A stretch of 64,000 bases of DNA from Octopus vulgaris. Its lineage: Eukaryota. Shown one piece after another: positions 1 to 64,000 of the stretch. Where the stretch lies: NCBI GenBank assembly GCA_951406725.2, contig OX597817.1, positions 156,736,001 through 156,800,000 on the forward strand. Direction: 5' to 3'. The notes under the pieces are model-generated. The model was not told the origin of the DNA and searched no databases. It was given only the letters and a program-made list of their open reading frames with translations. Within the stretch, counting starts at the first letter, position 1, and the number at the start of each line of letters is the position of its first letter. A program made the position numbers and the translations under genes.

Positions 1-1084
1 TATATATATTAATGTTTTTGTTTCTTATTTTATTTTGATTTCTTCCAATTAAGGCTGTTTTATTCCCAGTCTGCACTGTGAAGCTTGTTTTTACTGCTAT
101 ACATGTGATATAAAGTATTGCATATATTTTATAAATATATATATATATATACACGTGTGTATATGTATGTATATATATATTTATATATATTTATATATAT
201 ATATATATATATAAACAAACTTGATAATCTTGTGTTATCGTGATATTCTTGTATGTTTATAATTAAATGTTTAGAGTATTCTGGAATGATATACCCATAA
301 AAAAGAAAATGATCTTCATTTGTTTTGTTTACCAAAATAGTTTCTTTGAGGCCTGAAGATCTGATCCCTTTTCAATACCTATAACTTAAATTCTTAAATT
401 ACTTTATATTTATATTGACTCCATCAAAATTCCTATTTACTAATCTTTACATTAGTAAATACTTTAAACCAAAAGTTGGCATCAACTGAGTAATTTATAC
501 ATCATATTCTTTTAGAAATTCCAAATTTTTACTATTTCACTTGAAAGATTTTTGGTATATCCAGGGTTCTCGTTGCATTAATGGTAATTAATAATTCTGA
601 TCAGAACATTTCATCATTAACCAGGTTAAAATGAACTTTTAATTAACTCTGATTTTTTTTTTCCCATTATTTAATCTTCTTAACTCTTTATTAATTATAA
701 TCCAGCATTTTCAATTTAAACTTATATACATATACTCTCACACATTGCTACACACAGATACAGAAAAACATACACAAATACATATAAATGTATATATAAT
801 ATATGTATCTATATGTGCGTGTGTATGGTTTTTTTTTTTTTTTTTTTTTGGTAATGTTCCATTTTCTCAATAATTCCTTTACAATAACTAATGTGTATTA
901 CTTAAAGCAAAACTCTGTAAACCATTTCCTTCTAATAACATTTCCAATTTACTCATCTTGAAATCTCTCCTTTTTAATGCTTGCATTTCGGATTGCTGTC
1001 GGATTTTTTTTTTTTTTTTTACCTACCTTTAATTGTAAAACAAACAAAAACAAAACTATTGACAAAAAAACAAACCCTTGATAG

Positions 1085-8197: not shown

Positions 8198-8340
8198 GTA
8201 TATTTCACTTTGATTCTATTTATTAGTTAGGTACCATATTGCAGTAATCTTAAATGATAACACACACACACACACACACATATACACAAGCAGTTTTACA
8301 CTTGCTCTCCAATCAGAAATGTTATTAGTAAAGAAACAAC

Positions 8341-11300: not shown

Positions 11301-14300
11301 GCCTGTTTTTCTTTTGTCTCAAATCGGTGTTCAGATCCAACAATATCAAAAAACCATCTTACCTCTGATACCAACATGAAAAAAAATGCATGTAAACACT
11401 GATTTTTCTGTTTTGGATAACCAGTTCTTTTTTGTCTGGTAGTGAGTTGGACCGTATAAATCAATTGAACTTAATGATGTCTGTATGACATTTGGCGACG
11501 TCGATTCATGCAGGACTTAAACTCAGAATTATGAAATGCTGAACTAGACATGACAAAGGATCCAAGTCCAACAGCATACCAAACTTTGGCTAGTCATCTT
11601 TACCATTCTTTTATACGGATATCAAAATTCCATTGAACCAGCCCACTTTATGCTACACAGGAACAATAACAAGAATTTTATCTCCTTGTACGCAATTCTA
11701 TAAGTCCAAGTCATTTAAGACGGAATAGTTGTGTGGCTATGTAATGTGTGTACCCATCTGTGTGTGTATGTGTATTGTATTTTTTGTCATATTTAAAAAA
11801 ATGTCTGTTTTACTGTTGCTACTCTTTACTGTTTCTTTTTTTTTTTTTCAATGTTTACTGTTGCTTGTGTGTGTATATCAAGTGTCCCAAACATCTGACA
11901 GATTTCCAAATACAAAAACTGTCTATATGCGGACACTATTTCGTTGTGTATATGTGTATGTACCTTCATCTAGGTGTGTATGTTGTATGTTGGTCATCAA
12001 CATTCATGCATTCTCTTCTAGTCCATCCCATCTCAATGATTCCTTTAATTGGTTTTGGTGCCATTTATCATATAATTTCATTTCTTGTTGATTTACTTAG
12101 TCTTATCATTATTATCGTCATAACTATGGATATATCATTCCAGTCATCCTTAGTGTTTCATCTGATGATGATGTTGGTAATGGTTATGATGCTAAGTGAA
12201 AATATACCACAGCTTTTTGTCTGTTAAGTGTTTTGCATTAGGAAGGGCATCCAGCCATAAAAAGGAATGTATAAACAAGCATGGTCCTCAACTCAACTAT
12301 AAGGGTGCTTACTCCAAACTAGGTCAAGCTCAGACCATGATATCCTGTCCAGCCCATACCAACACAGAAAATGGACATAAAACAGTGATGACATAGGTAG
12401 GATTTAACCATTTAGAATTTGAACTGGGTATGTCCAGCCCATGGCCACACAGAAAATGGACATAAAACAGTGACGACATAGGTAGGATTTAACCATTTAG
12501 AATTTGAACTGGGTATGTCCAGCCCATGGCCACACAGAAAATGGACATAAAACAGTGACGACATAGGTAGGATTTAACCATTTAGCATTTAAACTGGGTA
12601 TGTCCAGCCCAAATATTCTCCCTGTTTCATGTTCAAACTTGTGAGATCCAGCTTCTGACACCTACCCTACAATTTCATTCTAAAAATAAACAGTTACTTC
12701 ATCAGAATCTCAAAGCTAAGAGATAATGCATGATTAATTCAAAACCTGATGAACAAATGAGCATTGCATATGACAGAGTAATCTGAATGCTGGAAGGCTA
12801 CGATAGGCTGATTAAAACATAACAAAAAAGCTAAGTGGTGTTAGGTCTGTTGTTTATGAACACCATAGCACCACATACAAAATATCACAAAATGCAATTT
12901 GAGAAATGGTTTATTGCAAATTCATCCAACCCATGATAGTCATCAGCAGCCAAATCCTCGTCTTTTAGTTCATGTAACTTTCTAAAAAACTGTGTTAAAC
13001 ACCAGTTTAATATTTACCTCTTTTATTTATGTGTGAGTGTGTTGGCAGTTATGGATGAAGATGTGTCACAGATACATCCTCACTGCAAAGCGGAAAGGAT
13101 TCAGTTGAATCCAAAAATATTTAAAGCAAAGCAATGTTTCCAATTGGATAGATTGAAAATATATTGTGGCTGTTGGTATTTATTCTACCTTTTCAGTTTG
13201 AATCTCAGAAACTCCAAATTAAACTGGATAATCCCTGCATGTGTGTCTGTGTGTCTGTGCATGTGTATGAAAAAGAGAGAGAGTTGCATGAAAGATGATT
13301 TCCAATTTTGTATCATTTTGTTTTGTGTGTTGTTTTTGTGCAGGTATTGACAAACAGGAGATCATATTTGAGCAGATGGTTGAACAAATTGTTTGTGAGG
13401 GAAACAAAATATCGATGCCTGATTCCACGTTACAAGATGAAGATTCGGTTTCCACTGAACCAGCGTTGATGTCATCATCTCAGTCTAGAGACAACAACAC
13501 GTATTCTAGTATCAGCAGTTCTGATTTTGGCGAACAAGTAGCTGCTGTACAATCTCAGCAACCCTGTAGAGAAGACAGCGGCTCCGATGATCGAGCTCTA
13601 ACTGAAGAAGACTTTGAACGCATGATGTCCAGTTATGAAAATGTTTATGATGGAGTGCAACTCGCTCCTGAAGTCAGCAAGTTAGCCATGAATGCCAGTG
13701 ATCTAGACATCGGAGATCGTTTTGACACAAAACAACTTGACCTACATCTTCAGCCAACTGGACGCTCTTCAAGTTATGAGCAGCTTTACAAAGAAACAGG
13801 CGAAGAGATCGCTGAAACAAGTGAACAAGCCGAGCAAGTTGTTTATTCCGCAGAGTCGAAAGAAGGTGAGTTGAACAATGTGAGTGCAGCGACTGACTCA
13901 CTTGTGTCTCAAGCTTGCTCGAAACCACAGAGTGAGCTGACATGTTTACCTGCAAAGAGGTCAGTACGATTTGATACTGACCCCAGTCAAATTCACATAA
14001 CAGTAGAGTCTGGACTAGACACTTTAGGCTGTGATGATAGCATGACAACAGAGTCAACTGACCCAGAATTTTTGATGCGAGCCTGTTCTTGGGACCCGGA
14101 ATGGGACCCGTCTAAGACCCGCAGTAGAACATATTCCGCTCCAGGGACAAAGTCTCGTCGGAATTTGCCATATGTATTCCAAGAGAAAGGTATCGTGTTA
14201 CTAATGTGCTACTTAAAAAGCAAACCATTTTCCAGTTGCCCTTGCTTGTTTCTAGTTCCAACCATATTCTCGTCACCCTGACTTCTGTGGTTTTCTATTT

Positions 14301-27374: not shown

Positions 27375-30300
27375 TTACATGTATGCAATTGTACATGTGT
27401 GTGTGTATGTATATACATGTATATACACATGCACACACACACTATATATACACATATGAGCTTTCAGCTTTTGGTTCAATGGTTTGCTTTCTTGCAGGCT
27501 GATATTAAATAATATAACATTATATTTAATGATATAACATGATATCCAGTGATATTAAAATGGCAACATTACTCGTTCTCATGCAATTAATTTTATTGGA
27601 TAATGTGTGTTTTAGTCCGCCTAATTTCGACCGTAAGTTGGTTCTGGATGAAACACGTTAGGGTGAAGATCTTTTAATATTAAATATTCTTTCTTGAAAT
27701 CATCTCTTCTTCTGTCACCCTTCCTCTCCTTTCCAGATTTGTTCATAGATTAAGGCATTTCACTCAATTCTAGAATACTCGTTACCACAACAACCAAAAA
27801 ATGATATGTGAAAGAATTTTGTTATTTTTTCCAAAAATAGAAAATTTTCTGATGGAAATAGCATGTTTGCTTTTGTTGTGGTTTTTATTCTCTTAAAAAT
27901 TAATGAAACATGACTTTCGGGGTTCAAATTCTACATCAGATTACTGTTACCATTTAAGTAGATTTATGGTGCAGAGCTAATTGATTGGACAAACCATTCT
28001 GATCAGATTTCTGGCTGTAACCATCTTGTCTTTATTATAAGGAATTTTGTTCCTTGAGATTTAGAGCTGAAAACCTATGTTAATATAAAACTAATAATGA
28101 TTTTATTGAGAAATATTTGACTTCTAGATTGCACAGACCAACTGGCCCCATGGAGATTCTCTCACAAGTTCTCCTTTTTTTCCTTTCTCTTGTTCTACAT
28201 ACATAGGTATTTTTCTCAGTTGACTTAGCAGTGAGAAAAGGTTCTGCCATAACTAAGTATGAATTGTGCAAGTATCTTTTAAAATTTAAGAGATTTATCC
28301 TGCATATCACAATTAACTTTGCTGCTTTCTCGGATCTACGGATCTACAATATCTGAGTTTCTTTACAAAGAAACTTTCAAAGAACCAATCCTATGCTCGC
28401 TGTAAGAGCTTTAAGAATGAAAGCAAAATGACAATCACTCATAAAACACTACAAAAGCAATTACTAAATTTTATAAAGTTTTAAGCTCTTATTTATTTGT
28501 TTTTGTTGCTAATGTTTTAATTTTAGCATTTAACTATTCTCTACTGATGTAGGTTGAATATTTCTGCAAAATCAAATATTTACAGCAATTGTATTAATAT
28601 GTTTTAAAGTTATGTAGCCTTTTCAATCATTAATCACATTAATCATTAAGTTAAGAGTGGTGGGTTGACTGATGCAAAGATGTTGTTCAGTGATTTCTCC
28701 CCACATCCACTTCCCTCATTTATCATTGATAAAGGATTCTTGGGCAACTTGAGTTGTATGCCTTGCCTAAGGAGACAATAAAATTCAAGCCATATTGGTG
28801 TTTAGTTGATACCTTAACCCCTTTCTTATTGTCTCCCTATGGTTTTACTTAAATAATAAGGGTGTATTTCTTCTATATTTCCTAATTTCTCATTGGTTTA
28901 AGTTCTTTTATAATTACAGAGTAATATTCCTTATATTTATCGAGTAGATATGTAACACACACATTAAGTTTCCATTCTATTATTTTTCACTTCATTTATA
29001 TATAAATTAAGAATTGCATTGATCCCTTCTATTAACAGTTATATACTAATTCTCCTTATTAATAAGTTTTATATCAGATCAACATAATAATGTTGTAGAT
29101 CTCTTATAATTTTACTAGATCAGCTTACTAATAACAATTCATTAGATGATAATACTAACCCATTATCATCATCCTTCTCTCTAGATATTTTGTGCACTTT
29201 CATCTGACATTTCTTTCTAACAATTCACTAAGCTACTTCTATGTTATGTTTCCTAATTGTTCTGCATTCTACTCCACTGTCAGTCGAATGGTGGCAGTCT
29301 ACTAACACACTAATATCACCCTGATTTCTATAGATGCCGAGATGCGTGACACCAGTGAAGAAAAAACAGAAGAAACGGATGTGGAAGAGCAGTTCTCTCC
29401 CCTTCCTAAAAGTTCTCCTGCTTCTAAAGGTGCTCTTGATCTTAGGTTAGAAGACAAGTTCTTTTCGTTCACCCAATCCCCTGTGGAGTCCCCAACTGCT
29501 GAAATAGCAAATGAAATATCTCCAGCTCAAGATCTTCTTGACGTCAAAGACATGCAAATAACTGTTGGCCTTTCACCATCAGAGATTAATGCTAAGTCCA
29601 AGCTGGGATCTCTTTCAGAATTCTATGAAACAAAAACAACTGAAGATTTCAAAACAATGTCCAAAATAATCGCCTCGAAAACCCCCAGAGTAGAATATGA
29701 GAAAGATAGTGGTGAATCCTTCAACATCCCTAGGATTTCAACTGATTCTGATACAACTGAGGAAAGACTAGAGCTTGATAATGTAACAGAACAATCTGCT
29801 ACATCATTAATGTCTGAAGAACACGATGGAACCGAAGATGACTATAAAAGAGAAACACCTGAAGAAAGAGCGGAACGTTTATCTTCCATGGCCTTTGATA
29901 ACATGGGTTTTGCTGGTGAAGATGTTGTCGACAGTGAAATAAAGACACACTCTGATGACTTCTCTGAAGAGAGTCCAAGTCTTGCTGCCAAAGAAATATC
30001 TCCAGAAGATCTTGAAGAGAAGTCACATCAATTTGACTTCCCAGCTGTCCATCAAGAAATATGGCAGATGGGTATCCAGGCACTGGGGAAAACCAAATTA
30101 TCAGAAGAGAATGAGATGTTTTCCAGCTCAATGAAATTTGAAGAAGTAACACACAAGGTCTCATTTGAAAAAGATGATGATGAGGAGAGTGGTGCTGCAA
30201 TGTATTCTGAGAGTGAAGAAACCTCCCGTTCAGAAAGTGGAGATACTAAAGATCAGAACTCTTTCCAAGAATCTATCCAAAGGTCTAAAACATCCGATGG

Positions 30301-33300
30301 CCAATTTGAAGCTACCTCAGAAATAAGAACAGAAAAAACCATTGTAACATCATCCAGAGCACAAGTCTCTTTATCAGAAAGTCAAAGTAAAATGATAACC
30401 GAGACCAAGGTCTATCAAGCAAAAGAACCCAGTGAAGGAATTGAACTTACCGGACATGACGCCACAGAGAAAACAGCTAGACATCTTACAACCACGGCTA
30501 GTGAGCCCATTATTTCTCATCCATTCGATCAGTCTACAGTGGAAACTATATCCCCAGAGGCCAGTAGTTCTGACAGTGAAGGTTTCTATGACAAAGAATC
30601 TGGCAAAAAGTTACCTTGGGAAACTGTCCATCATTTCTCCCGACAGTTCTCTGATAACTATCTTGAACAGCAAGAAAAACAAGGAATAGTTACTGTGCAG
30701 TCAGTTGACATGGGTGTATTTTACCGGAGAAGTAGCAAAGACTATTCAAACGTAACATTTAGTGAACAAGATATCTCTGAGTCTATTGCTGAAGAAGAGG
30801 AAGAACCCCCCAAACGGGTTACCTTCACGCTTTCAGAAGATTTGGAAGAGTTTCCATCAGAAGTAGCTACAGGTTCGGATGAGTCAAAACATGATGATGA
30901 AGTTGAACAAGAAATTAGGAAACCAGATGATATCTTTGATGAGTCTGTCAAAGATCAAATTGTAGTCAAGACAATAAAAAAACAACCTACTGCACTATCC
31001 AAAACAGAAGAACCTGTCGTCACAACATCCAAGACAGAAGAACCTGTCGTCACAACATCCAAGACAGAAGAACCTGTCGTCACAACATCCAGGACAGAAG
31101 AACCAGTTGTCACAACATCCAAAACAGAAGAACCTGTCGTCACAACATCCAAGACAGAAGAACCTGTCGTCACAACATCCAAGACAGAAGAACCTGTCGT
31201 CACAACATCCAAGACGGAAGAATCTATCATCACAACATCCAAAACAGAAGAACCCATTGTCACAACATCTAAAACAGAAAAGTCTGTCTTCTCAACATTC
31301 AAGACAGAAGAACATGTTACATCTTCTAAAGGCGAGGAACCTGTCATCACTACAGTGAAGACAGAACATATAACTACGACATACAAAACTGGAGAACCTG
31401 TCATCACAACTTCAAAGAAAGAAGAGTCTGTCGTCAAAACCTCTAAAACAGAAGAACCTGTCATCACAACATCAAGGACAGAAGACATTACTATAGCATC
31501 CGAGGCTGAAGAACCTGCCTTTGTAACTTCCAAGACAGAACATGTTACAACATCGACAACTGAAGAACCTGTCGTCACAACATCTAAAACTGAAGAATAT
31601 GTTACATCTACGACTGAAGAACCTGTCATCACAACATCTAAAACTGAAGAATATGTTACATCTACAACTGAAGAACCTGTTATCACAACATCTAAAACTG
31701 AAGAATATGTTACAACATCTACGACTGAAGAACCTGTCATTGTAACCTCCAAGACTGAAGAACGTATTATAACATCTACAACCAAAGAACCTGTTGTCAC
31801 AACATTCAAGTCAGAAGAACATGTTAAAACATCCAAAACTGAAGAATGTGTCATCACAACATCTAAGGCAGAGGAACCTGTCAGTACAACAACGACAGAA
31901 GAACATGTTACTACAAAATCTGAAAGTGAAGAACCTGTTGTCACAACAACCAGGACAGAACGCATCATCACAACATCTAAAATTGGAGAACCTGTCATCA
32001 CAACATCAAAAACAGAACATGTTACAACAACATCTAAAACTGGTGAACCTGATGTTACAACAACCAAAACAGAAGAATTTTTCACTACAACATCAGAACC
32101 TGGAGAACCTGTCATCACCACCTCCGAAACTGGTGAACCTGTCGTCACAACATCCAAGACAGAAGAACGTGTCATCACAACATCCAAGAGAGAAGAACCT
32201 GTCATCAGAACATCTAAGACTGAACATTTTACTGTGGATCCAAAAGACAAATTTGACATACCAACTGCCAAAACAGACCATGTTACCACGACAACTAAGT
32301 CAGCACATGTCACTGTAACTTCCACTGTAGAACATGTCATCAAAACATCCAAGAAAAAAGATGATATTGAAGAAGCTGAGGAAGAGTCTATAGTGGAAGC
32401 CAAGAAAGATATCCTTGAACCATATGATAGGATGTCTGGAGAATATGAAGCTACTGTTTTGGCTAATATAATGGATGACCATTCTTCTAAACAAGAAAAA
32501 GCACCTGAATCACCTGATGAATTATCTAGAGAAGACACTTTAAAAGAGAAAGATCTTGAGTATGAAATGGTCTCCAAGAGTGCTGGTGACTTAGCCAGTC
32601 CTAGTGAAAGTAAGTCTTCAGACCTTTCATTAGATCTTTCCTCAGAAAAACTTCCATCAAAAGATGATCTTGATGAAGAACACCAACTTCGACCAAAACC
32701 AGACAGTGAAGAAGTGTCACCAAAATCAGGAATAATCGGTGTTGTAAGCATTGAATCTCGGATGGCCCAAAAAGAATTATTACAGGAGTCAGCAGATGAG
32801 AAGGATCGCTCCCTTTCACCATCAGTTGATAGTGATGAGTTATCAACCACTTATGAAAGTCAGGCTGAACTACAGGAAGAACTCTGGTCTGAAATCCCCC
32901 CTGTTGATCGCTATCCTGCCCCTGCCAGAAGGAAGCATTATGCTGATGGTGAATCCTCAGAAGCAGAGAAAGAATCTCCTGAAATTGAACTTTCTCCTAT
33001 TGCTGAAGCACCAGCCTCTAAAACTGACTCCGAGGAGCAAGAAGAGAGTAAGATGACAGCGCAAGATAGAAGGGTAACATTTCTATCAGAAGAGAGTAAG
33101 GAGAAGCTGAGGCAATCTATTTCCAATGAAGATTTAGTTAAAACATCAACCTCTTCCTCTGAAGTATCCAACGAACCAACTTTATTAGCTGCTTCGTATG
33201 ATTTGGATTCAGGGCATGTTTCACATATTGTGACAGCTTATGACATGTCTCCAGACACCATTGAGAGTCAGGTGCCACATCCACCGGCACCTAAAGCTAT

Positions 33301-36300
33301 TCTTTCGAGTCCTGAAGATGACGTGTTTGAAGTTGAACCTACTGTGGGAACTACTCGCACCGACGAGCCTGGCACTGAGCCAGATTCTGAGAAGAGTTAT
33401 ACCGGGCCTCAGTCTGAGGTCATCATTATAGAAGACATTTGCGTCAGCAAAGACAAAACGGGGTCGGAGTCGACGGAATCTTTACCGCCAACTCCTGCAC
33501 CGACGCCCAAAGATGCAACCACCATCAAAGATACCGTTTGTAATCTTCAAGACGCAGCCAACAAGCTGCAGACCGAAGGTCTCTTTGATCGGCAGTTTGG
33601 ATCTGTAAGCAGTGAAACTTCTGAAAAACGTCCTTCGAGTTTTGAAAAGGACTTTTCAAAAGATGAAAGCAGTGATGATGATGATGATCATGGCCAATCA
33701 TTTGAAATGGTTTCACCAACTGAAATTATTGGCTATGATCAGTATGCTGCTAAATATTTACAAGGTGGTATAGCGGGATGCATTGAAACAGCAAGTTTGA
33801 CCGCTTCAGTGGAATCCCTCTCTACATCCGGAAGTAGTTTTGCTGACCTCAGAGCTAGTGAGCCCACAAGTATGAAGTCTAGTTTAGAAGAGTTTGCAAG
33901 TGCTACAGCTTTTGTCGAACCATCCGCACCTCCAATGGAAGAAGTATGTAAGATTCCCAGTTCTCACACCATGAAACCTGATACCGATTCCTCACCAGAT
34001 CAGTCACTTTTCAGCAGTAGCGATGCTTCAGAGAAAGGTGCAGCCACTATGGATATTGTTGCCTCCAGTGTTGCATCTCCGGGTGCATGCCGTCCTGATT
34101 TGTTACCCTCTGACTCTTTTCAAAAGAGTTTGTCTACAGAGGAGATCAGTGAAACTGAAAATATCGAAGACATTGCTGCCGACAGAATCTCCCAATTACC
34201 AAATGGTCCTACAGAGGTAGATTTTCAACCAGACATCGATTCTGTGTCATCTACTGTTAAAACTGTGGTGCCTGCAGCACCACCGGATTTGGTTCAGTCC
34301 TCACCATCATATGTTATGGAAGAAGAAAAATCACAGCAGGAAGATGTTGCCATGGAACTAGAAGACAATCAGATATCGGCTGGTTCTGATGCTGCTGTCA
34401 GAGATGTCATGACCGATAGCTTGATAGAAGATGTGAAGTTGTCGGCTGAGCAACAGGAAGTCTTGGTAACGTCAGATCAGACTTTATATGAACTTGAAAT
34501 GCCAATGGAGGAAGAAGCTTCCCCTATTGAACAAGTTGGTCCAACATCAGCTACTGTTTCCATAACTGAAACTACATCATCTGTGGTTGTTAAAACAGAA
34601 GCCCCTACAGTGGAATTTCATGAAGAACAACATCGTGAGATATATCCAGCTGAAATGGTAGAGTCTAGATCACCGACTGAAATCGTTGGACTGGAACCAG
34701 TGTTAGATGACCTTGAAGAACAGCCATATGAGTTGAAGAAAGATGAAATTTATCCTGGTAAAAGAGCACTTGAGTTTGATGTGTCTAGCTATGAAACTTT
34801 GTTAGAGGAAAGCAAAGAAAGACAGCAAGAAGGAGAGACCAGTGTGGTAGAGGTTAGCCACCTAATTAGAGAAGATCAGAGGATTAATCTGGATGATACT
34901 GATGAAGAAACAGTTCAGTTTTCAGATCAACTTAAATCCGATCATGATGTAAGTTTTGTTCACACTTCAGAAAAAGTGTGTACAGACATGGTAGAAGAAG
35001 AATTTAGTGATCTAAGTAAAGATGCTTCTTATGAGCAAGTAGAACTGGCTGAAAGTAGTCTAGAATTTGCTGAGAAAGCTGAAGAAGAACTTGAAGCGTT
35101 AGCAGGAAAAACCCCCGAAATATCATTTGAACCATCTAAAGGGGAACAAGATTTGGACAGACCCATATCCCCAACACCCCAGGATTCTCAAGAAGGTGTC
35201 CTCAGTGATGATTATGAGAAGGTTAGTGCTAGTATTAGCACAGAAGAACTTGAGAAAACAGCTACAGTGTTTGTAGACTCTGTTCTTGAAGAAGCCTCCA
35301 AAGTTCAGGAGAAAGCCCAGGTATTCCCTGAACAAACAGAAGCTGAAAAGCCAATCGATGAAACAACTTTTGATGATAGCAAAGAATCTGAAAAAATGGT
35401 TGCTTTCTCATTTTCAGAACAATTTGACCCATCAATGATGTGTCGGTCACAACCAGCCTTTTTCTCGGCACCACCTCCACCTTCCCATCCCCCTCCTTTC
35501 ACGAAACAGAGGGATGATGACATGCCCGAGATCACCATCACAGAACACCTACACAAGAGTATTGACAAAGATGACTTTGTTCCATCTGGCTTTGTTCCAT
35601 CACACATGCCAGACTCTTCCTCTGAGCAGGAAGACAAAGAATCTGATGAAAAAGAATCTGGAGATGATAGTCCAAAGGGTGAAGGAATGTCCTATTTTGA
35701 AATGATTCAGGATGAAATGGAATTTGAATCCGAAGAGACCGAAAAGAACGGAGTGTCATCTCATGAACCTAGTTCTTCGGCATTCGTTATTGCTGATGCT
35801 CATGCTGGTTCAGCAAAAACATTCACCAGTGAACAAGAACTTGAATGGAATGTGCAGAAATTTTCTGAAACTCCTGACAAAGTACCAACCACTTCTTCGT
35901 TTGAAGACTCCTTTTCTCTACAAACTAAAACTGAGCCAGTTCCTATCAGTTCTTCAAAACAATTCCAAAGGGATTCTGAAACTAAAGATTCTTCTAAGAA
36001 CGGTTTCCTTGGATTCGAGCCTTCGGTCATGCATGCCACTGACATTCTGAGCCCCGAAGATATTGCTGATACATCAAGTGTGGACAGCTTTACAACAGTC
36101 GTTGGCGTAGACCAAGAAGGGGACGAGTGTGATGATGACCGCTTGGCTGATGTTGCATCGATGACATCATCAATCCATTCCGACATTTATTCAATGCATA
36201 CTGAACCAGAAGAAGAAGAACCGTATGACTGGCCATTGTTGACAGAAGAGGACAAATCAGGGGAATCTTCTCCATGTAGCGATCGTTTTGAGATGATTGG

Positions 36301-38354
36301 GAAGACTGCTTTATCGGTGATATCTGAAAAGTCTGATGAAGATCGATTTGAAATGATAGAAAAAGATGAACTGGAAGCACTCTCTGACAGCCATTCTAGT
36401 AGCAAAACCTCACCGGAAATGATATCTGCCTCACCTGGTACTGTGGGTCACACCCACGGCTATCCAAACATACGTTACGCTGGCAGAAGTCGGGAAAAAG
36501 ATGATGGGTCAGCTGCTTCTTCTGTTTCTTCGTCCTTGTTAGAATTTGAACGGTTAGAAGGTGAAATAGGACAATTTGGCTCGCTTGGATCAAATGAAGC
36601 CCACAGCCTGCCTAGCTCTTTTGACAGTCGAAACTTCCATTGGCGAGCAGCTGATCGAGATGATGTGTCAGTTGCCTCTTCATTAGGAGAATTTGAACGT
36701 CTAGAGCGACAGATTGCACTCGGAGGTTCAATTGGCTCGTTTAGTTCAATAGACAAGTTGATGCCATCAGGACAAGGTAGTGCAACAAATGGATCGATGT
36801 CATCACTGGCTGAATTTGAAAACCTCGAAAAAGAGTGCACTGGGGGTGGATACTCCAGTTCGGGAGATGATCGCCACAGTTCATCAAGTGGCCATAGCAA
36901 ACGCAGTGCAAGTTCATCGCTTGCCGAATTTGAACGACTAGAACAAGAAATAGTCATATCTGAAGAACTTGCTGCCGAAGCCAAGAAAATAGCGTCAATA
37001 TTGGAATCAGGGGAGCTGCCTGAATATCCAGAAAGTGAAAGTTTAGGAAGTTCATATCAATCAAATGGTCACATGAGGGATGTACCTGAAATAATAGGTA
37101 ATTTTGATATTGAACAGGACTCCATAGACGGAGACGACATTGATAAGGATTCACTTAGCTCTGAAGAACCCAAGATGCAAGATGTTAGTCAAGTGGCTAA
37201 AGAAGAAGAAGACGATATAGACTCATTGGACGGAGATAGCAAAGATGAACTTACTTCTAGTGTCATCTTTGTCTCCAATGCAGAAATACAAGATTCCAGT
37301 GAAATGGGTCAATTCGACTTTGATCGAGATTCTCTGCAAGGAGATGATACAGCAATGCAATTTTCTGTAGAATCTCTGCAGTTAGACCAAGATGCTTCAT
37401 TTGATATGCACAGTTCTGTTGATTCGTTAGAAATAAAAGACAAATTTAGTCGAGACATGCAAAGCTCAGCTGATTCTCTAGAACTGAAAGAAAGAATGAG
37501 CAAAGAAATGGTAGACTCGACAGATTCTTTGGAATTCAAAGACACTGTGAAAGATACTGATAAATTTGAAACAGATTCACTGGTTGATCAAGATGACATC
37601 ATGCAAACGTCTTCTGATTCACTTGATGCTTTTCCTGCACTAACACACCAAAACATCATGGAAGCCTCTTTGGAGTCTGCTCGTTGGAGTCTAAGCAGCT
37701 CTTACTTTTCCCATTCCTCACAAGAAACATTACGATCTGAATCCCACAGTGACTCAAGCCATTCTAGAGATGTCATGCAAATGTCTGCAGAATCTGTAGA
37801 TTTTGATAAAGATAGAAGATTTGAAAGTTCCGATACCGAAATGGATTACAAGACGGTATCAAGTAAGACATTAACATCATCTGCTTTAGATCCCGAAATC
37901 CGCATGATCACAGGAATATCTCATCCCAACAATCCTTTCTTAGATAATGAAGGCAATGTTAGGACAGATCTGGGGTATCCGGGCCACTTTAGAAATAAAT
38001 ACGAATATTCAAAGTTTGATAAAGAAGGGAACTACCGTTGGAACACCGAGTTTGAAGAAACAACCAGAAACAACTCATACCTTAACTGGGGTCCTTATCA
38101 AGAGAAAAAGAAGGTTTACACCATGACGGAATGGGAAGCCATGCGCAACGCTAAAAAGAGAAGTGCTGATAATGAAGAACTTGGCGGGGACAGTGAACAA
38201 GTGTCTGTCATTCCTGACAATCACTTTGCCCAACTTAACAACAAAGAAGTCTCTTCTAACCTTCCTTCTGAGCACACAACTTCCCACCCTAGAACTTCTT
38301 CACCTCCTCCTTCTACCGTTTTACGGCCTTCTTCTCCTGTTTCCTCTACTACTG

Positions 38355-38386
<32 letters not shown>

Positions 38387-38865
38387 TATTACTCCTCTTC
38401 CAATTCCTCCTCCTCCTCTTCCTCAACCTATCATGCTGCTGTGACTCGGCCTGACTCCAGCTCCACCAGTCAAACTGCTGCTACCTCCGATCCTCTGCTA
38501 TACCATCACAGTATGTCGGACACTACTACTACTACTACTGTCCATAAATCCAGTAGAGGTATATCTAACTGTTAGACGTACAGCCAGTGTACAGTCACGC
38601 TGCATGATCTCTAGCCTAACAAGTTGCATGTCAGCCTGCTAATTTGTTGTCTTCTACATGCTATTGTTGTTGTTGTTGTTGTTGTAGTAGTTGGTGTTGT
38701 AATGTAGTCAATTAATTCAGTATGCTATGTTTTTGTTGCAGGATCAGCCTATTTTCCTTTCACACACACACACACACACACATACACAAACACACATGCA
38801 CATTCAAGTGTCTGTAATCATGTATGTATGTGTGTGTGTGCAATGTGTTTACATTATATATCTAT

Positions 38866-44500: not shown

Positions 44501-47500
44501 AAGTGTGGTGAGCTGGCAGAAACGTTAGCACGCCGGGCGAAATGCGTGGCCGTATTTCGTCTGCCGTTACGTTCTGGGTTCAAATTCCGCCGAGGTCGAC
44601 TTTGCCGTTCATCCTTTCAGGGTCGATAAATTAAGTACCAGTTACACACTGGGGTCAATGTGATCGACTTAATCCGTTTGTCTGTCCTTGTTTGTCCCCT
44701 TTGTGTTTAGCCCCTTGTGGGTAGTAAAGAAATATATATATATATATAATGTATACCAACATAATTCCAGAACCTTACAGTTTTGCGGAGTCTCTCTCCA
44801 AGTCGCCTGATGATGGTGATTATGATGTCAGCGCTACTAGTTATGATGATGGTGCTGGTATAGACTATGGTGGCGATGGTGCTACTTATGATGGTGGTGA
44901 TGCTACTTATGATGATGGTGGTGATGCTACTTATGGTGGTGGTGATACTACTTATGATGGTGGTGATGCTACTTATGATGGTGGTGATGCTACTTATGAT
45001 GGTGGTGATGCTACTTATGATGGTGGTGATGCTACTTATGATGGTGGTGATGCTACTTATGATGGTGGTGATGCTACTGATGATGTTGGTGATGCTACTG
45101 ATGATGTTGGCAATGCTACTTACTACAGTGGCGATGCTAACTATGACGTTAGCAGTGCTACATGTGATAGTGGTTTAGCCAATTATGATATCGGTTATGC
45201 TACTTATGATGGCAGTGATGCTACTTATGATGGTGGTTATGCTAATGATGAGGATGGAGCTGTTGAATACTACGATACCACCCAAGACTTTGATGGTATT
45301 CCTCAGTCAGAGGCTGGTGTTGATGAAAATCAGAAAGGTTTGCTAAGTTGCTACAATCCATATTTTTGCCAGGCATCAATCCACTTTTGCTGCTGGCTTG
45401 CCTGTAAAGTTGAATTTGGACAATCTAGAAGATACAATTGCCATTGGGAACCTAGTTATCAGATTTGGATAGATTTTTCTGGGGGGTTTTTTTCTTTCAA
45501 GAGATTCAGTGGTTCTGAGGTTAACCCTTTAGCATTTAAACCAGCCATATCCGGCCAAAAGTATTCTACCTGTTTTATGTTCAAACTGACCAGATCTGGT
45601 CTCTCACACCAACCCTACAATATCGTTTTAAAAATTAACAATTACCTCATCAGACTCTCAAAGTTACAAGATAATGCATGATGAATTCAAAACAAGGTGA
45701 ATAAAAAAGCATTAATTTTGGTAAAATAATGTGAATACTAAAGGGTTAAAGTATTTTTAACTAGTGGATGTAATGGTCAATAGTTCAAAACTTACTTTCT
45801 GCAATCATTGTTTTGTGCCCATGGTGGGTAAAAGCTAATTTAATTTGTTCCAATGTGAACAAGAGGGGAAAGAGAAAACGAAAGAAACCTCAGACTACAA
45901 GACAGATGAGTCGTTCATGGTAGAAAAGAATAGCTGGAACTCAGTTGTGAAAACAGTTGTTAACCCTATCCATGGAAGCCGGGTGGAATGAACACGAAAT
46001 AATATTTAAAATGTTGTTATCGATACATAAAGAGGGAAAGGGCTTTAAGTACCATGCTTTATTGAATGCTTAGCTTAGCTCAAACGTGTTTTTATTTAGC
46101 TTTGCTAATCATGTATAATGTTCCTTTTGTGATAAAGCTGTAGACACACTCACATGCAAACATATACACAAAACATACATATGCAAACATATACACAATA
46201 TATACATATGTAAACATATACACAATATATAGACACTGTGTGCACTTACCATGCAGAAGCTCTTACTCCTGCAGCCAGAGTATATCATAGATTTCGTCTA
46301 TAAACTTTTCAAAAAATATAGTCAATGAAATTCTTATTTGACTGAGTGATACTTATTTTTACCTCCTGATCATCATCCCCACCAAAAAAAAAAAAAAATT
46401 CAGTCAAGCTAAATACAGCAACTGGGCCAAATTCTAAAAGACATAGACTACAATCTTACTAGCTTCAGGCCTGCAAAGGCCATAAATATACTACCTCCTC
46501 CTGACTAAAATATTTAAAAATCATATAACTTCATAATATAACAATGTTATATCACATAATGATGTTGTAAAGGCTATAAACATGAAGTTCATATTGTATA
46601 TTATCAAGGCCAATTTGCTGAGCTGTATATACTGTTTCTGATTTTGTAATACACCAATGTTCTAATTTTAATTCCTAGTTAGTATTTTCTTATATGCTTC
46701 TGGAGTAAGTCCCAAGCTTCTTAAATCAATTCATAAATATAAAACTCCTTTAAAATCCAGTTCTTTAGGATAATTTCCTATGCACCACAATCTTGTCTAT
46801 GTAGGGTTACATAAACACTTAGCACTGAGAAAATATAATTCTCTCAATGACTGTACAGATTATTATTTACTGAACCCTTCAGAATTTAAACCAACTCTAT
46901 CCAACCCAAATATCTTAACCTATTTTATGTTCAATGCTGCCAAATCAGGCTTCTTGCACATACCCTATTATGTCGTTTTAAAAATAAACAATCACATCAT
47001 TGAAATCTGAAAGCTATGAGATAATTAATGCATGATTAAGTCAAAACAAGGAAATAAATAAACTTTGCATTTGAATGCCTAAATGGTTAAGGAAAAAATT
47101 TTCTGATCTTTTTGTGAATCAAAAGAATCGATATAGTCAGGTGCTTATTTCTAGTTTCCAAAATGTTAGGAGACTGGTCATTCTCACCCAGAGAGGACAT
47201 TTGTTTTTCACATGTAACATTTCCTCAAAGAAACTGAACACTTTGGCCATACAAGCTAACCAATTGTACCAGAACTAAATTCTTTGCCCAAGAACAGATC
47301 CAGTGCTTGTAACATGATATGAACCTCTGATTTTTCATCTGAGATAATTTTTATCTGGTGTATTCTGGCAATTCTGTATGTATAGAGATTGTTAAAGTTG
47401 ATGAAAATGCAGGACCAAATGAGGTGATATGACTAAATGGTCAAAGTATTGGGCAACTGTTTCATAGGTCAAGAATTCTGCAAATGTTTGGTTGCATTTT

Positions 47501-50500: not shown

Positions 50501-52228
50501 GGAAGTTCAGAGAGCTATTCTGGGAAAGAACGGTGGGGATCTAGTGATTAGTAAAGGGCCTGGTGGGGTAATGGAGACAATATTAGTGATAAGAGAGGAG
50601 AGATGAGTGAATCAGAAATGCCTGTGCAGAGATGGCATGAGAGCAGCCACCTCTGAGGAGCAGAGGCCAGTATAGTGACAGTACATAGATGCACTCACAC
50701 ATAATCATTACTGTCAATTGCAAGTGAGTATGGCTTGACAGTGTGTATCATGCTTTTGTTAATTGTTTTAGATGCCTATGTATTCTTGAGTGGACATAGA
50801 CACCCTTTCTGGCCCTTTTACCTTCGATCCAGTGGAATATCAAGAATATGACGGCTGGAAGGAGAGAAGGTTGCCCCAGCATAAGGCTGCTACTCATTTC
50901 CAGTTGAGTAGACTGGAGTAATGTGAAATGAAGTACCTCACTCGGGGACACAATCCACTGCCCAGTCCAGGAAATGAACTTACTACTATCTTATGATCAT
51001 AAGCCCAAATCCCCCTAACCACTAGGCCTCATTCCTTCACATATTTAGAGACAGTACATACACAAGTGTAGACACTTTTTTGATGGAAATGAGATGAGAA
51101 GTCCCTCTCAATTTGGACCCATCTAGATAGGTAGGGAGACACATACATTCTGTTTTTGCCAGTTATTTCTTCTATATTTACACTCACACATTTAAATGTC
51201 TAACATTGGATACAAATGTAAACAGTTCTAGAATGGTGGCCACTACATCAACATTGGTGTCAAACAAGACATGGTTAATTTTAGTGTTTATTTCAGATCA
51301 ATAGTCAGTTGACGAAATCACCTTCGATTAGAGTTAACATTGTTCTATGGATACATTCCTCTCCCAGCTAATCTAAGGAGGGGCAACCTTCCTATTTCTC
51401 AAGTTTCAAGAATACAGCAGAAAGAATTAAAGTTGTTACAAATTCTTTCAACTCAAAGACCTATTTTATTATATATTTTTTTTTAATATTTACATTTCTT
51501 TTTTTATTAAAGCAAAAATATTCATCAATTTTAGAATTGCTCCTTTTCTTTTTTTAACATAATTCTTTACCTGTTAATCCAGTCGCTTTGTTTCTTGTAA
51601 AAATTATGCCTTTATTATCTTTGACAGCTGAATTTATTTCTATTATCATTTGCAAGACAAACGTTTTGCTGTCTGCATGTCTGCAAAGCCAGTTGCTCTT
51701 TTAAATAATAATACGACAATATGGCTCTAAAATTTAGCATGGAAGTTACTAACCAGCATAATTTGTTTTTTTATGTTCTTTAAATGGTTTCATATTTTTA
51801 CAAAATCTCTATCAGATTAAGTTATTTGGATATTTGGTTAAACCGAAAGAAACTTACATGAGGAAAATAGCATTTAGCCCAATGTCGAACTGGAAATTCC
51901 TAGACAGGCAATTTATTTATTCAATTGAAATTAACTATACATGCAATTTTGTCACATCTTTTTGTTTCTTGCTATCCTCTGCTTCGTTTGGGTTTTAAAT
52001 TTCGTTCTTCTTTCTCCTGCTATTAGCCTAATGATGAAGAAAGAAATTCACAAAAAGACATACATGCGAGACGGACGAGAAGAAACATTTATTCAAGAAG
52101 AGTCTCGTGTGGAACAACAGAATGAAACACCAGAAGAATTGCGTGAAAGCATGCAGCAAATTATTGACCAGTTTATGCAAACTCCAAGTGAATTTGACCA
52201 ACGACAGTGTCTGGAAGACGATGTCTAG
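1085..52228 (+). CDS. Ank2: 3' portion of a multi-exon giant disordered scaffold gene, probably giant ankyrin (ankyrin-2/UNC-44-like); 8 coding exons, ~6,070 aa in window; 5' exons lie upstream of the window
   Basis: Eight GT-AG exons with compatible phases; summed length 18,218 nt plus 1 upstream nt = 6,073 codons ending at TAG 52226-52228. The ankyrin identity rests on recalled motif similarity (extended LIR FEIIEQEEILEAK, SSLxEFERLE, DSL repeats, giant-exon architecture). No ANK/ZU5/death domain is visible here. Confidence 0.62.
2245..4038 (+). repeat. Coding tandem array of KSPSP/KTPSP units; higher-order 57-bp unit (27+30 bp) encoding KSPSPELKD-KSPSPLQLKS
   Basis: Visible in DNA and translation; near-perfect 57-nt periodicity around 2960-3370 (tcaccacttcagttaaag at 3001, 3058, 3115...). 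Confidence 0.95.
8373..8575 (+). mobile_element. Degenerate tRNA-derived SINE (family 2)
   Basis: ggcaagctggcagaattgttagc...gagttcaaattc...ctttgcctttcatccttt...gataaaataagtaccag, matching copies at 15133, 44503 and 55652. Confidence 0.75.
12346..12610 (+). repeat. 85-bp tandem triplication spanning a SINE-tail/MITE junction
   Basis: tgtccagccca recurs at 12346, 12431, 12516 and 12601 (exact 85-nt spacing). Confidence 0.9.
13344..14189 (+). CDS. Coding exon B (846 nt, phase 1-1)
   Basis: Within ORF 13295-14281; acceptor tgtttttgtgcag|GT; donor GAAAG|gtatcg; 282 codons; acidic Ser-rich composition like exons A and D. Confidence 0.85.
15133..15365 (-). mobile_element. tRNA-derived SINE (family 2; central block resembles the MetaSINE/Sauria-type core as I recall it)
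   Basis: Reverse complement closely matches 44503-44731 and 55652-55866; pol III A/B-box-like head (agctagcagaaacgttag / gagttcaaattcc). Confidence 0.85.
15964..16179. mobile_element. piggyBac-type MITE (family A)
   Basis: TTAA|CCCTTT...AAAGGG|TTAA termini; homologous to 45525-45745, with degenerate copies at ~12575-12800 and ~46870-47090. Confidence 0.85.
16696..16845 (+). pseudogene. Tigger/pogo-type transposase N-terminal HTH (CENP-B_N/psq-like) remnant
   Basis: Translates as MPDPSKQHKLVYSLQENVEIIKKICDSGSLITVGCKF, then after a frameshift GVNESIIHSIYK; resembles the SL.EK.EII....G.S....A.KFGV.ESTI..I.K HTH pattern. Confidence 0.55.
18905..19090 (-). mobile_element. CORE-like SINE (family 3); related copies at ~21630-21890 (+) and ~50880-51040 (-)
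   Basis: Reverse complement contains gttgtgtccttgagcaagacactttatttcatgttgctccagtccactcagctg; the same block occurs in the two other copies. Confidence 0.65.
19396..19786 (-). mobile_element. Young tRNA-derived SINE (family 1), full length
   Basis: Near-identical to 22926-23312, 25240-25647 and 54983-55365; on the minus strand the head is ggcgcaggagtggctgtgtgg (A box) ... gggttcagtccc (B box); (gtaaaaga)n tail. Confidence 0.9.
21446..21615. mobile_element. Short foldback/MITE with ~45-bp imperfect terminal inverted repeats
   Basis: aatagtttaactcaggcccatgcaacttaaa pairs with tttaagttgcatggagctgagtcaaactgttatt. Confidence 0.7.
22926..23312 (-). mobile_element. SINE family 1, full length
   Basis: Near-identical to the copy at 19396-19786. 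Confidence 0.9.
23940..24118 (-). mobile_element. Retroposon 3' fragment with (gat)n tail (family 4); related copies at ~44090-44311 and ~48570-48710 (+)
   Basis: Shared ggcattaggaagggcatccagc...aacccatgctagcatgga...ggacgttaaacgatgatgat block. Confidence 0.7.
25240..25647 (-). mobile_element. SINE family 1, full length
   Basis: Near-identical to the other family 1 copies, with a small internal deletion. Confidence 0.9.
26068..26214 (+). CDS. Coding exon C (147 nt, phase 1-1), poly-Glu
   Basis: Acceptor ttctcttcttgtctcag|AT; donor CCAG|gtagct; 49 codons DMPRTDQHDVQRELITAAKDEEEKEEEEEENLSSSSSEVAQVEDVDFLP. Confidence 0.8.
29300..29306 (+). promoter_or_regulatory. Consensus branch point TACTAAC upstream of giant exon D
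   Basis: Perfect TACTAAC about 27 nt before the acceptor AG at 29332-29333. Confidence 0.7.
29334..38558 (+). CDS. Giant coding exon D (9,225 nt, phase 1-1): TTSKTEEPVV array, RVxF sites, LIR-like motifs, SSLxEFERLE and DSL repeats
   Basis: Within ORF 29342-38575; acceptor gatttctatag|AT with TACTAAC branch point; donor AGAG|gtatat at 38558/38559; 3,075 codons. Confidence 0.9.
30998..32230 (+). repeat. Coding 30-bp tandem repeat encoding (TTSKTEEPVV)n, decaying toward the 3' end
   Basis: acaacatccaagacagaagaacctgtcgtc units are near-perfect over ~31000-31210 and progressively diverged afterwards. Confidence 0.95.
39710..40470 (+). mobile_element. Cluster of degenerate family 2 SINEs separated by (att)n
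   Basis: Three copies of the ctttgcct..catccttt..gataaaataag..ccag core at ~39740, ~40115 and ~40352. Confidence 0.65.
42230..42456 (+). repeat. Compound minisatellite: tatgcttacctatgtatacatgttt(gt)n(at)n repeated about 3 times
   Basis: Unit recurs at ~42271, ~42355 and ~42419 with variable microsatellite lengths. Confidence 0.8.
43774..43830 (+). CDS. Small coding exon E (57 nt, phase 1-1): EHTDLPQQMSTEESQSKTE
   Basis: Acceptor ttttgtctttcag|AA; donor AGAAG|gtgatt; open in phase 1; composition matches the gene; too short for the ORF track. Confidence 0.72.
44503..44731 (+). mobile_element. SINE family 2, full length, ending ~40 nt upstream of exon F
   Basis: Close match to 15133-15365 (reverse complement) and 55652-55866; flanked by (ta)n. 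Confidence 0.88.
44771..45337 (+). CDS. Coding exon F (567 nt, phase 1-1) with (DATYDGG)n heptapeptide repeats
   Basis: Within ORF 44749-45681; acceptor aattccag|AA; donor GAAAG|gtttgc; 189 codons; 21-bp repeat gatgctacttatgatggtggt. Confidence 0.68.
45525..45745. mobile_element. piggyBac-type MITE (family A)
   Basis: TTAA (45521-24) CCCTTTAGCATT...AATACTAAAGGG TTAA (45746-49). Confidence 0.88.
49341..49401 (+). CDS. Penultimate coding exon G (61 nt, phase 1-2): DRRDSDVAPDAETEDSAQAT(S)
   Basis: Long pyrimidine tract then ttctcaag|AC; donor CCAG|gtaaca; its phase-2 end matches the phase-2 start of exon H (ag|c = Ser). Confidence 0.8.
49805..50181 (+). mobile_element. Non-autonomous Helitron-like element
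   Basis: Starts A|TC(tatatatataaa), ends CTAG|T with a terminal hairpin (gaccc...gggtc); inserted between A and T, with no TSD. Confidence 0.8.
52027..52228 (+). CDS. Terminal coding exon H: SLMMKKEIHKKTYMRDGREETF...PEELRESMQQIIDQFM...LEDDV*
   Basis: Acceptor cttctttctcctgctattag|C in phase 2, matching exon G; stop TAG 52226-52228; followed by AT-rich UTR-like sequence with no recognisable TE. Confidence 0.85.
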
Positions 52229-56841: not shown

Positions 56842-57534
56842 TTAAAACTGAAAGGCTCTGGCTTTCAGTACTCAGATTTTCTGGTTTCCAATCATCAAGT
56901 ATTACCTTCCGACTTCCATAAAATATTTAGACAGTGGCTATTCAAAAGAAAATAATTACAGTAAAATCGGTCTTATTTCTAGGTTTGGAGAGAAGTAGAA
57001 ATGACTTGGACTGAAGTCCATCAGAAAAAAAAAAAAAACAGTAGAGAAAGAACAGGAGAGAGAAAAACAAAGTTAAAAACAGAGCTCTGAGAAGTCATGT
57101 TGCCTATGTTAGAGAGATTTTAAATGTGAGAGAATTAGATAAATGAGAAGAAAACAACTTTCAGCAATTAGTGAGACACTGCATGGAGAACTGTGTTGAC
57201 GTTTCAGATTAGTGTGTGAATATAAGACATGTATATATATGTTCATATGTGCCAAGGACATCTGCATTATTTGGGTATGTCTGTACTTCTGGGGGTAGTA
57301 TGTGTATATAGGTACACAGATGTGTATGTGCTAAGGACATGTATGTATAAAAGTTAAATTTGTGCACATGTCTGAAAATGTAAAGAAACTGAGATTGAGA
57401 CTTAAGTTTGAGGGATGAAAGTTCTAAAAAGAATAAGAGTTACTGTACTACCAAGGGGTGAACGATCCAACAAGCAAAACAGGACTGAAAGTGGGTAAGT
57501 ACAAATGGCATACAACCCATTGAGCTGGATATCT

Positions 57535-58503
57535 ATGAGGTGCAAGGTCAGGAGAGTAGGGGGGTGGGGGAGGAGTTCATAGCCGCATGCCTGTGCTTCT
57601 GATCTGGCGACACGAGAGTTGTGGACCGGAGCATTGTCCTGCAGGAGGAGGATGCCTTTGCTGATCTTGCCCTGCCTTTTGATTTTGATAGCTTCTCTTA
57701 ATTTCCTCAAAAGTGAAGCATAATTGTGGTACCCTTTGCCAGGGAATCTGTCATCACTACTCCGTCCAGGTCCCAGAAGACTATGAGCATGACCTTGCCT
57801 TCTTTGGAGGAGGTAAGTCACGGTGCTTCCACTGCATTGACTGGGCTTTGGTCTCTGGATCATAGTGATGGACCCAGGTTTCATCCTGTGTAATCAGTCT
57901 TTTGAAAAATTTTGACTCATCTTCTTGGCACATCTCCAAATTCATCCTCGAGCACTCAACGTGTTCTTGCTTCTGGAAAGGTGTGAGCAACCTGGGAATC
58001 CATCTGGCAGACACCTTTTGCATATGCAAATGATCATGAATGATAGTTTCCACAGACTCGGTACTATTCTTGACCTCATGGGCTATTTGGCAAATAGTTA
58101 TGCGTCAATCTTCCAAAATGGCAGCCTCAACTTCACGGACAGATGCCTCATCAATGGCAGAAGGGGGGCGACCAGATATGGGAGTTGTTCCCACAGAGTT
58201 CCGACCATGTTTGAATTCACGATGCCAGTGTTTTACAAGGTCATATGATTGGGCATCATCACCATAAGTTCCTTTCATTTCATCAAAAGTCTCCCGTGGT
58301 GTGCGTCCTTTCAAATACAAAAACCGGATCACTGCTCGACACTCAACAGGCTCCATTTCACACTTGACTCAGTTCAAATACCTGTAAATCAGAAACCACA
58401 ATTAGTTCATAGCTGTAATTTGCCACTTAATCTATATGCAAAATTACAGCTAGATCAAACATCTGCAAGTGGGTCAGAGGCATTACTCATTGAACGTCCC
58501 TCG
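57535..58503 (-). mobile_element. Decayed mariner DNA transposon (Himar/irritans-like), 3'-truncated; transposase pseudogene starting at 58356
   Basis: Broken frames give RAVIRFLYLKG, SARWIPRLLT, LITQDETWVHHYDPE, LLLQDNAPVH and LLPHPP(YSPDLAP); has a stop and frameshifts; 5' end TA|CGAGGGACGTTCAAT on the minus strand. Confidence 0.92.
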
Positions 58504-63977: not shown

Positions 63978-64000
63978 AGTAAGCTTGGTGGTGCTGTCGA

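Follow-up and report, generated by a model that had tools for sequence, protein, structure and literature searches.

Which protein carries four nearly identical ten-residue copies of the motif SSLxEFE[RN]LE close together in one reading frame of the octopus genome, how widely are they shared, and what could they bind? The copies lie in a stretch of 64,000 nt from Octopus vulgaris (assembly GCA_951406725.2, contig OX597817.1, positions 156,736,001 to 156,800,000 of the forward strand; called the window in the following, with coordinates counted from its first letter). We found that they form an array in the second giant exon of a gene which, judged by its encoded domains, is a giant ankyrin, and that related arrays recur in giant ankyrin tails of other protostomes. 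The coordinates of all features are collected in Table 1.

A six-frame scan of the whole window with the pattern SSL.EFE[RN]LE returned exactly four matches, all on the forward strand and in one frame, starting at 36530, 36677, 36800 and 36914 as listed in a first-pass annotation that had been made from the sequence alone. Not one of 5000 shuffled versions of the 3089-residue frame protein contained the strict motif. A pattern-free repeat test, in which any 10-mer family with at least 8 identities was accepted, gave 4 copies for the real 500-amino-acid (aa) segment and a maximum of 2 in 200 shuffles. Between copies, 19–23 of 30 nt are identical and the codon differences fall mostly on the third position (5–6, compared with 1–4 at the first and 1–2 at the second), which agrees with the earlier remark that the protein is conserved while the codons have diverged. 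No DNA tandem repeat was reported at the array by Tandem Repeats Finder. The repeat is old and is maintained at the protein level. The spacers measure 39, 31 and 28 aa with a Gly+Ser content of 28, 42 and 54%, compared with 19% for the frame, so that the description as Gly/Ser spacers suits the last two and fits the first less well. The array sits 780–652 residues from the octopus C-terminus.

Two very long stop-free frames occur in the window, 1063–8226 and 29306–38575, and both giant exons within them match the Octopus vulgaris protein P0100 ('titin isoform X43') at 100%; for the second, tblastn aligned residues 4250–7324 with 29333–38557 at 100% identity. When proteins were mapped to the window, only matches of at least 85% identity were considered. 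A pattern scan of the first giant exon revealed no motif copy, and neither giant frame contains a Pfam family. The domains of P0100 (PF00023/PF12796 (ANK), PF00791, PF17809 and PF00531) are encoded upstream of the window, and in its counterparts from O. sinensis and O. bimaculoides the giant exons are preceded by ANK repeats, ZU5, UPA and a death domain; the giant exons of P0034 begin at residue 1864, past the death domain at about 1690–1770. Multi-kb exons downstream of the death domain that are rich in S, E, T, D and K are a trait of giant ankyrins of the UNC-44/Ank2 type, and the octopus gene shows it. Titin consists of Ig/Fn3 domain arrays; a titin identity was rejected, as the giant frames contain no Pfam family and the proteins named 'titin' carry ankyrin domains. 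By these features the host gene is a giant ankyrin, as had been supposed, and its database name is a misnomer. Several further mollusc and brachiopod giant ankyrins are annotated 'titin' (P0100–P0106, P0120) despite their ANK, ZU5, UPA and death domains.

For the analysis of conservation we used two alignments, one with 19 of 63 homologues and one with 11 full-length ankyrins. In the latter, copy 1 ranks first in conservation among the 10-mers of the 5,500-residue tail, with a mean identity of 0.94, and copy 2 second, with 0.85, compared with a tail mean of 0.17. Copies 3 and 4 reach 0.54 and 0.59 and the spacers 0.14–0.23; in several proteins of oysters and mussels, the core pattern misses the counterpart of copy 3. 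The profile of 263 instances consists of an acidic leader followed by S-x-x-S-S-L-x-E-F-E-[RK]-L-E-x-E-hydrophobic. Because the search pattern fixes the core columns of this profile, positions were freed one by one: S-4, L-3, F0, E+1 and E+4 were kept in 217 of 217–218 instances, the first Glu in 217 of 232 (the rest being Asp) and L+3 in 217 of 242. A hydrophobic residue is present at +7 in 252 of 263 instances, and the net charge amounts to -1 to -3 per 11 residues.

An AlphaFold2 model of the array, built with 20 sequences, shows four separate helices that do not pack against one another and lie in a disordered chain; its predicted template modelling score (pTM) is 0.21. The predicted local distance difference test score (pLDDT) of the blocks is about 55 for copy 3 and 74–88 for the other three copies. 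Each copy is predicted to be a short amphipathic acidic helix with L-3, F0, L+3 and the hydrophobic residue at +7 on one face; the first-pass annotation had spoken of helices, and for every copy the model agrees, as a prediction. Since the copies do not pack against each other within the disordered chain, the helix would fold on a partner. The fourth helix is prolonged by about 20 residues in molluscs and Lingula, and the pattern of this extension was absent from 6 of 6 ecdysozoan proteins. Library searches with the array gave 0 Pfam families and 0 PDB matches by sequence, the four-copy profile produced only four chance-level matches in the PDB (E 1–4.3; FCHO2 at E 4.3 was taken as chance), and both of two ESM Atlas searches returned no usable feature match, with a structural template modelling score of at most 0.22. 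The helix motif bound by the AP-2 beta-appendage, F-x-x-[FL]-x-x-x-R, was considered and rejected, as 0 of 263 instances fit it.

Next, we consider the spread of the motif across animals. Four homologue searches yielded 31 matches among 7998 candidates, 42 among 1.84 billion representatives, 31 among 2737 and 75 among 1856; about 60 homologues in all come without a taxon. The 75-match search covered proteins of 4133–13152 aa, and neither C. elegans UNC-44 nor Drosophila Ank2-L/XL is among its matches, the fly lengths (Ank2-L 4083 aa) being partly outside this range. ZU5 and UPA_2 domains are present in 67 of the 75, and the other 8, without a Pfam call, include three isoform models of the same Octopus gene. 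The named matches comprise cephalopods, bivalves, gastropods and Lingula, followed by a weak tail (E 0.025–0.29) made up of ankyrins from three Trichinella species, one protein of C. japonica, an ankyrin of the spider Trichonephila and a further ankyrin without a name. The motif was found in 140 of 142 proteins, the exceptions being the first giant exon and one fragment. Counted over 85 distinct arrays, four copies are the commonest state (54 arrays), followed by three (22), two (8) and a single copy (1), and the median spacing is 45 aa; molluscs and Lingula have 2–4 copies, and each of the six ecdysozoan proteins has two, near its end. In C. japonica P0138 these read SLTSLQEFERLE and SVSSLAEFERLE, at 315 and 273 aa from the C-terminus, and in the spider ankyrin they lie 759 and 715 aa from the end. 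The hydrophobic unc-44 B repeat in the S4 table of Jegla (PMC5135030) is matched seven times in P0138, which for this reason is the UNC-44 giant tail; the motif copies follow the seventh of these repeats. A profile made from 247 non-ecdysozoan copies detected two sites in each of the six ecdysozoan proteins at 14–31 bits, while 126 reversed or locally shuffled controls scored at most 1.5 bits. The first-pass annotation had placed the motif in nematode UNC-44 and proposed a conserved protostome module. Both ideas held, the former through the C. japonica copies and the latter also through those in the Trichinella and spider ankyrins, so that the motif is neither missing from nematode UNC-44 nor the mark of an unrelated family.

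Evidence independent of the profile comes from the identity of the six ecdysozoan proteins, all of which are ankyrins, and from the motifs around the array. The order NGPxEVD[YF], RPxSP, array, DSL repeats and DxEGN is identical in octopus, C. japonica and the spider, and because these neighbours keep their order we regard the tail ends as homologous across protostomes. By the patterns used, NGPxEVD[YF], RPxSP and DxEGN were not found in Trichinella, and the DxEGN pattern was unmatched in Patella and T. spiralis. As far as could be tested, the motif appears to be under selection and protostome-wide across the lineages sampled (molluscs, Lingula, nematodes and a spider).

Two further features that the first-pass annotation had overlooked accompany the helices, a flanking LxxIxE motif and kinase-type serines. 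L-x-x-[IV]-x-E is the docking consensus of PP2A-B56 (PMC6363451). We observed L..[IV].E next to 74 of 80 arrays, either in the 110 aa upstream of the array or in the 60 aa downstream, with 12 expected from shuffles and a background rate of 53 in 382 windows elsewhere in 16 tails; 5 of the 85 arrays were excluded from this count, having less than 100 aa upstream. The upstream motif occurs as 18 different hexamers that preserve only L, I/V and E. These putative docking sites agree with the consensus and seem to be conserved within disordered sequence, and the flanking of the arrays by LxxIxE is a new observation. The CK2 consensus S/T-x-x-E/D (as in PMC3882785) is present in all four window copies, with a serine directly before each Leu. 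The CK2-type serine at -4 was kept in 217 of 218 instances when its position was freed. Serines upstream of the motif are spaced three apart, a spacing which fits the CK1 rule.

We suggest that the array provides multivalent docking helices whose binding of a cytoskeletal adaptor, most likely UNC-119, is controlled by phosphorylation; taken as a whole chain, we would put this a little short of an even chance. The near-invariant amphipathic helices would fold on the partner and gain avidity from their copy number, CK2/CK1-type kinases would phosphorylate the serine run capping each helix (S-x-x-E at -4), and PP2A-B56, docked on the neighbouring LxxIxE, would strip the phosphates, so that the state of the serine caps would tune binding. 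By analogy with C. elegans, the partner would connect the membrane-anchored ankyrin to CRMP and microtubules. It is the combination of serine caps and adjacent LxxIxE that suggests control by kinase and phosphatase, and UNC-119 is favoured because it is the only partner mapped, in the literature examined, to this end of a protostome giant ankyrin. A C-terminal fragment of UNC-44 alone binds UNC-119, which bridges to UNC-33L/CRMP, and this fragment extends to the stop codon (primer o1191; He 2020, PMC7159925); the C. japonica copies lie within 315 aa of the tail end. The first-pass annotation had let the UNC-44 tail work with UNC-119 as well as UNC-33/CRMP. The UNC-119 part is in line with this binding, but UNC-33L binds only via UNC-119 (PMC7159925). 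Furthermore, the CK2-beta subunit KIN-10 was enriched 3.4-fold in an UNC-119::GFP pull-down (PMC7159925), and CK2 phosphorylates residues 3134–3728 of 4083 of Drosophila Ank2-L in vitro (Bulat 2014, PMC3882785).

Several points weigh against this proposal or against the breadth of the motif on which it draws. The ecdysozoan matches are individually weak (E 0.025–0.29), the profile test on them is partly circular because the six proteins were chosen by similarity to the query, and no insect or deuterostome protein is among the named matches. The range searched for LxxIxE was set after examples had been seen and lacks the motif in 6 of the 80 arrays, Lingula among them; being related, the arrays do not count as independent. 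The start of the UNC-119-binding fragment was not placed, the published primers having failed to map onto C. japonica, and the same fragment includes the DSL repeats and DxEGN, conserved motifs that are possible sites as well. In the UNC-119::GFP pull-down UNC-44 itself was unenriched (0.74 and 0.97), as were KIN-3 (1.24), PPTR-1 and PPTR-2 (1.11 and 1.19) and PAA-1 (1.26), and the UNC-119/UNC-33L contact uses a non-conserved segment (PMC7159925). In the work on Ank2-L, CK2 acts without direct PP2A binding, with PP2A in parallel (Bulat 2014, PMC3882785).

It is doubtful, although quite possible, that the helices dock another conserved neuronal partner, e.g. MAP1/Futsch, a motor adaptor or a trafficking factor, and that UNC-119 binds elsewhere in the tail end. 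Drosophila Ank2 has been reported to bind microtubules directly, and the non-conserved UNC-119/UNC-33L contact fits this reading as well, but UNC-119 alone has been mapped to this end of a protostome giant ankyrin in the literature examined (PMC7159925). The conservation and helix data are silent on the identity of the partner, and further conserved motifs lie within the same fragment.

The FE[RN]L core resembles the anchor motif of vertebrate Nav channels, so that the helices might fold back on the ANK-repeat groove of their own or a neighbouring ankyrin in an autoinhibitory or oligomerising manner, like a channel anchor motif; the channel motif, however, requires an acidic residue at -3, where the copies have an invariant Leu. 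The groove itself is conserved (0.79) and takes short peptides (PMC6703079), but channel anchor motifs are chordate-only (PMC2597720). Moreover, no channel or ankyrin chain is among the PDB matches of the four-copy profile and the array is more than 5,000 residues away from the ANK repeats, and we consider this reading unlikely.

Motifs of the LC3-interacting region (LIR) or Atg8-interacting motif (AIM) type consist of [FWY]-x-x-[ILV] after acidic residues and are bound as strands. They are present in vertebrate giant ankyrins, and F-x-x-[ILV] after an acidic residue occurs in 250 of 263 instances of our motif, so that each copy could be an Atg8/GABARAP- or FIP200-binding motif switched on by upstream phosphoserines. 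This core is loose, though, with a similar 5-mer pattern in 2046 of 5000 shuffles, and it leaves the invariant L-3, E+1 and E+4 unexplained. With Lys or Arg inside the core in 204 of 263 instances and a segment predicted to be helical, where LIR cores bind as strands, we regard this possibility as quite unlikely. Self-association of the copies into a small bundle or a coiled coil that needs no external partner would suit the amphipathic pattern, the 32-residue helix of copy 4 and the best PDB profile matches, which are designed coiled-coil peptides (E about 1); a pTM of 0.21 without sign of a folded domain, a net charge of -1 to -3 per 11 residues and a copy number ranging from 2 to 4 make it very improbable. 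Finally, the tail is Ser/Glu-rich and contains recent tandem repeats elsewhere (30997–32224), but a by-product of low complexity, chance or recent tandem duplication is hardly credible and was rejected in view of 0 of 5000 shuffles, the diverged third codon positions, the conservation of the motif and not of its spacers across phyla and the profile scores in ecdysozoan proteins.

Returning to the UNC-119 proposal, one may go a step further and regard the last 1,000–1,500 residues of protostome giant ankyrins as an ancestral collinear motif string in which SLxEFExLE is an UNC-119-binding helix switched by CK2 and an adjacent PP2A-B56. We offer this wider view tentatively and would sooner doubt it than rely on it. 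If true, the string would couple the membrane skeleton to neuronal microtubules as a regulated clutch and would be the first sequence evidence for the homology of nematode, chelicerate and mollusc giant exons.

Table 1. Features of the array, its neighbouring motifs and the host gene in the window
Feature	Position	Strand	Remarks
Copy 1, SSLLEFERLE	36530-36559	+	Residue 2409 of stop-free frame 29306-38575; predicted helix to ~36577 (H98-114)
Copy 2, SSLGEFERLE	36677-36706	+	Residue 2458; predicted helix H147-163
Copy 2 with acidic Ser-rich leader, DRDDVSVA-SSLGEFERLE	36653-36706	+	Leader fits family profile; identity 0.85
Copy 3, SSLAEFENLE	36800-36829	+	Residue 2499; weakest predicted helix, pLDDT ~55
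Copy 4, SSLAEFERLE	36914-36943	+	Residue 2537
Copy 4 with longer predicted helix, QEIVISEELAAEAKKIASILESG	36914-37012	+	H227-258, pLDDT 74-88; found in molluscs and Lingula
LSVISE, putative LxxIxE motif of PP2A-B56 docking type	36311-36328	+	~70 aa before copy 1
NGPTEVDF, upstream motif	34202-34225	+	Collinear counterparts: NEPEVDY in C. japonica, NGPGEVDY in spider; no match in P0139 or P0140
RPISP, upstream motif	35159-35173	+	Collinear counterparts: RPVSP in C. japonica, RPMTP in spider; present in 4 of the 9 other ankyrins tested
Seven [DE]SL[DEQ] repeats after array	37220-37627	+	Common to nematode and spider tails
DNEGNV (DxEGN motif)	37943-37960	+	Also near tail end in Lingula, C. japonica and spider
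First giant exon of the ankyrin gene	1085-8197	+	P0100 residues 1830-4200 at 100%; splice signals; 7.1 kb
Second giant exon of the ankyrin gene, holds array	29334-38558	+	3075 codons (9.2 kb); AG acceptor and GT donor at ends
Small exons of P0100	26067-26213, 43773-43829, ~49340, 52019-52225		P0100 mapped to window

Apart from the array, the aligned ankyrins share other conserved islands at about 33100–33500 and 36060–36190, namely EDLVKTSTSSSE, TLLAASYDLDSG, KAILSSPEDDVFE, SSVDSFTTV and ASMTSSIHSD. Acidic aromatic-x-x-aliphatic motifs occur at 1252–1275 (SSEWVVID), 1360–1380 (VEEWVKV), 4072–4113 (EDFEIIEQEEILEA), 36281–36301 (DRFEMIG) and 36341–36361 (DRFEMIE), the last being among the conserved 10-mers of the tail; we take these motifs to resemble the GABARAP-binding motifs of vertebrate giant ankyrins. 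With regard to the gene structure, in the O. bimaculoides model P0035 the two giant exons follow an N-terminus of 2,000 residues that has no ANK repeats; either the model is faulty, or the gene has an alternative start and a third large exon. An alternative exon at 13343–13936, skipped in P0100, contains a conserved SSYENVY and has two apparent 3' ends, 13864 in the O. sinensis models and 13936 in the O. bimaculoides models. An intronic 317-codon frame with GGDATYD repeats (44728–45681) has no Pfam family and is unused by the 5 mapped isoforms. The first giant exon includes a Lys/Ser/Pro repeat block with 45 SPSP units (2263–4002), a possible array for proline-directed phosphorylation, and in the second a recent tandem repeat with a 30-bp unit in about 42 copies (30997–32224) encodes TTSKTEEPVV. 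On the reverse strand, downstream of the ankyrin gene, we observed an interrupted pol gene of a long terminal repeat (LTR) retrotransposon at 61373–63998 (reverse transcriptase, RNase H and integrase), which appears Ty3/Gypsy-like from its domain order; a fragmented mariner-type transposase (Mos1 HTH_48, E 2e-8) lies at 57402–58368 on the same strand.

The array is a newly described module in the tail of giant ankyrins, a kind of protein known to carry short motifs. We found no prior description of the motif in the literature searched, and older ankyrin papers outside it may mention the motif within one species; the string 'eferle' is listed once, for a 1995 unc-44 paper (PMC2120500), and the 9-letter motif strings were not found. 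In the accessible part of Jegla 2016 (PMC5135030), a table lists Aplysia and Lottia exons without the SSLxEFE[RN]LE motif, the long exons of Drosophila, C. elegans and sea urchin are described as having no detectable homology and their repeats as not conserved across long distances, and a single origin of giant ankyrins is argued without sequence support. How the tail grips microtubules and how this is regulated, an open question of He 2020 (PMC7159925), would be narrowed down to a few point mutations. With the motif and the neighbours that keep their order around it, lophotrochozoan and ecdysozoan tails are linked by homology at the sequence level.

The giant exons of vertebrate AnkG and AnkB follow the same logic, with short motifs in a giant disordered exon that bind EB, GABARAP and the SH3 domain of ASAP1. 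EB binding by these exons is noted in PMC7159925. The vertebrate giant exon lies upstream of the death domain (PMC5135030), whereas the octopus giant exons lie downstream. With the PP2A-B56 LxxIxE motif (PMC6363451) the octopus site shares the consensus, a disordered region and the acidic or serine residues that follow, and it stands beside serine runs; the published link between B56 and an ankyrin concerns vertebrate ankyrin-B (PMC12144453), and judged by title and the start of the abstract we found none among the publications listed that deals with a giant protostome ankyrin. The C-terminal domain of Drosophila Ank2-L, a CK2 substrate with six sites including S3354, S3356 and S3358 (PMC3882785), lies 355–949 aa from the end, a range comparable to that of the octopus and spider arrays, and was compared with the array by this distance only. 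The UNC-44 AO13 C-terminus of C. elegans, for which the accessible part of PMC7159925 gives no residue-level UNC-119 site, acts in the UNC-44/UNC-119/UNC-33L cortical anchor and is, like the octopus array region, the tail end of a giant ankyrin. Compared with UNC-44, the octopus tail carries four copies and a long fourth helix and has no STEP/hydrophobic blocks.
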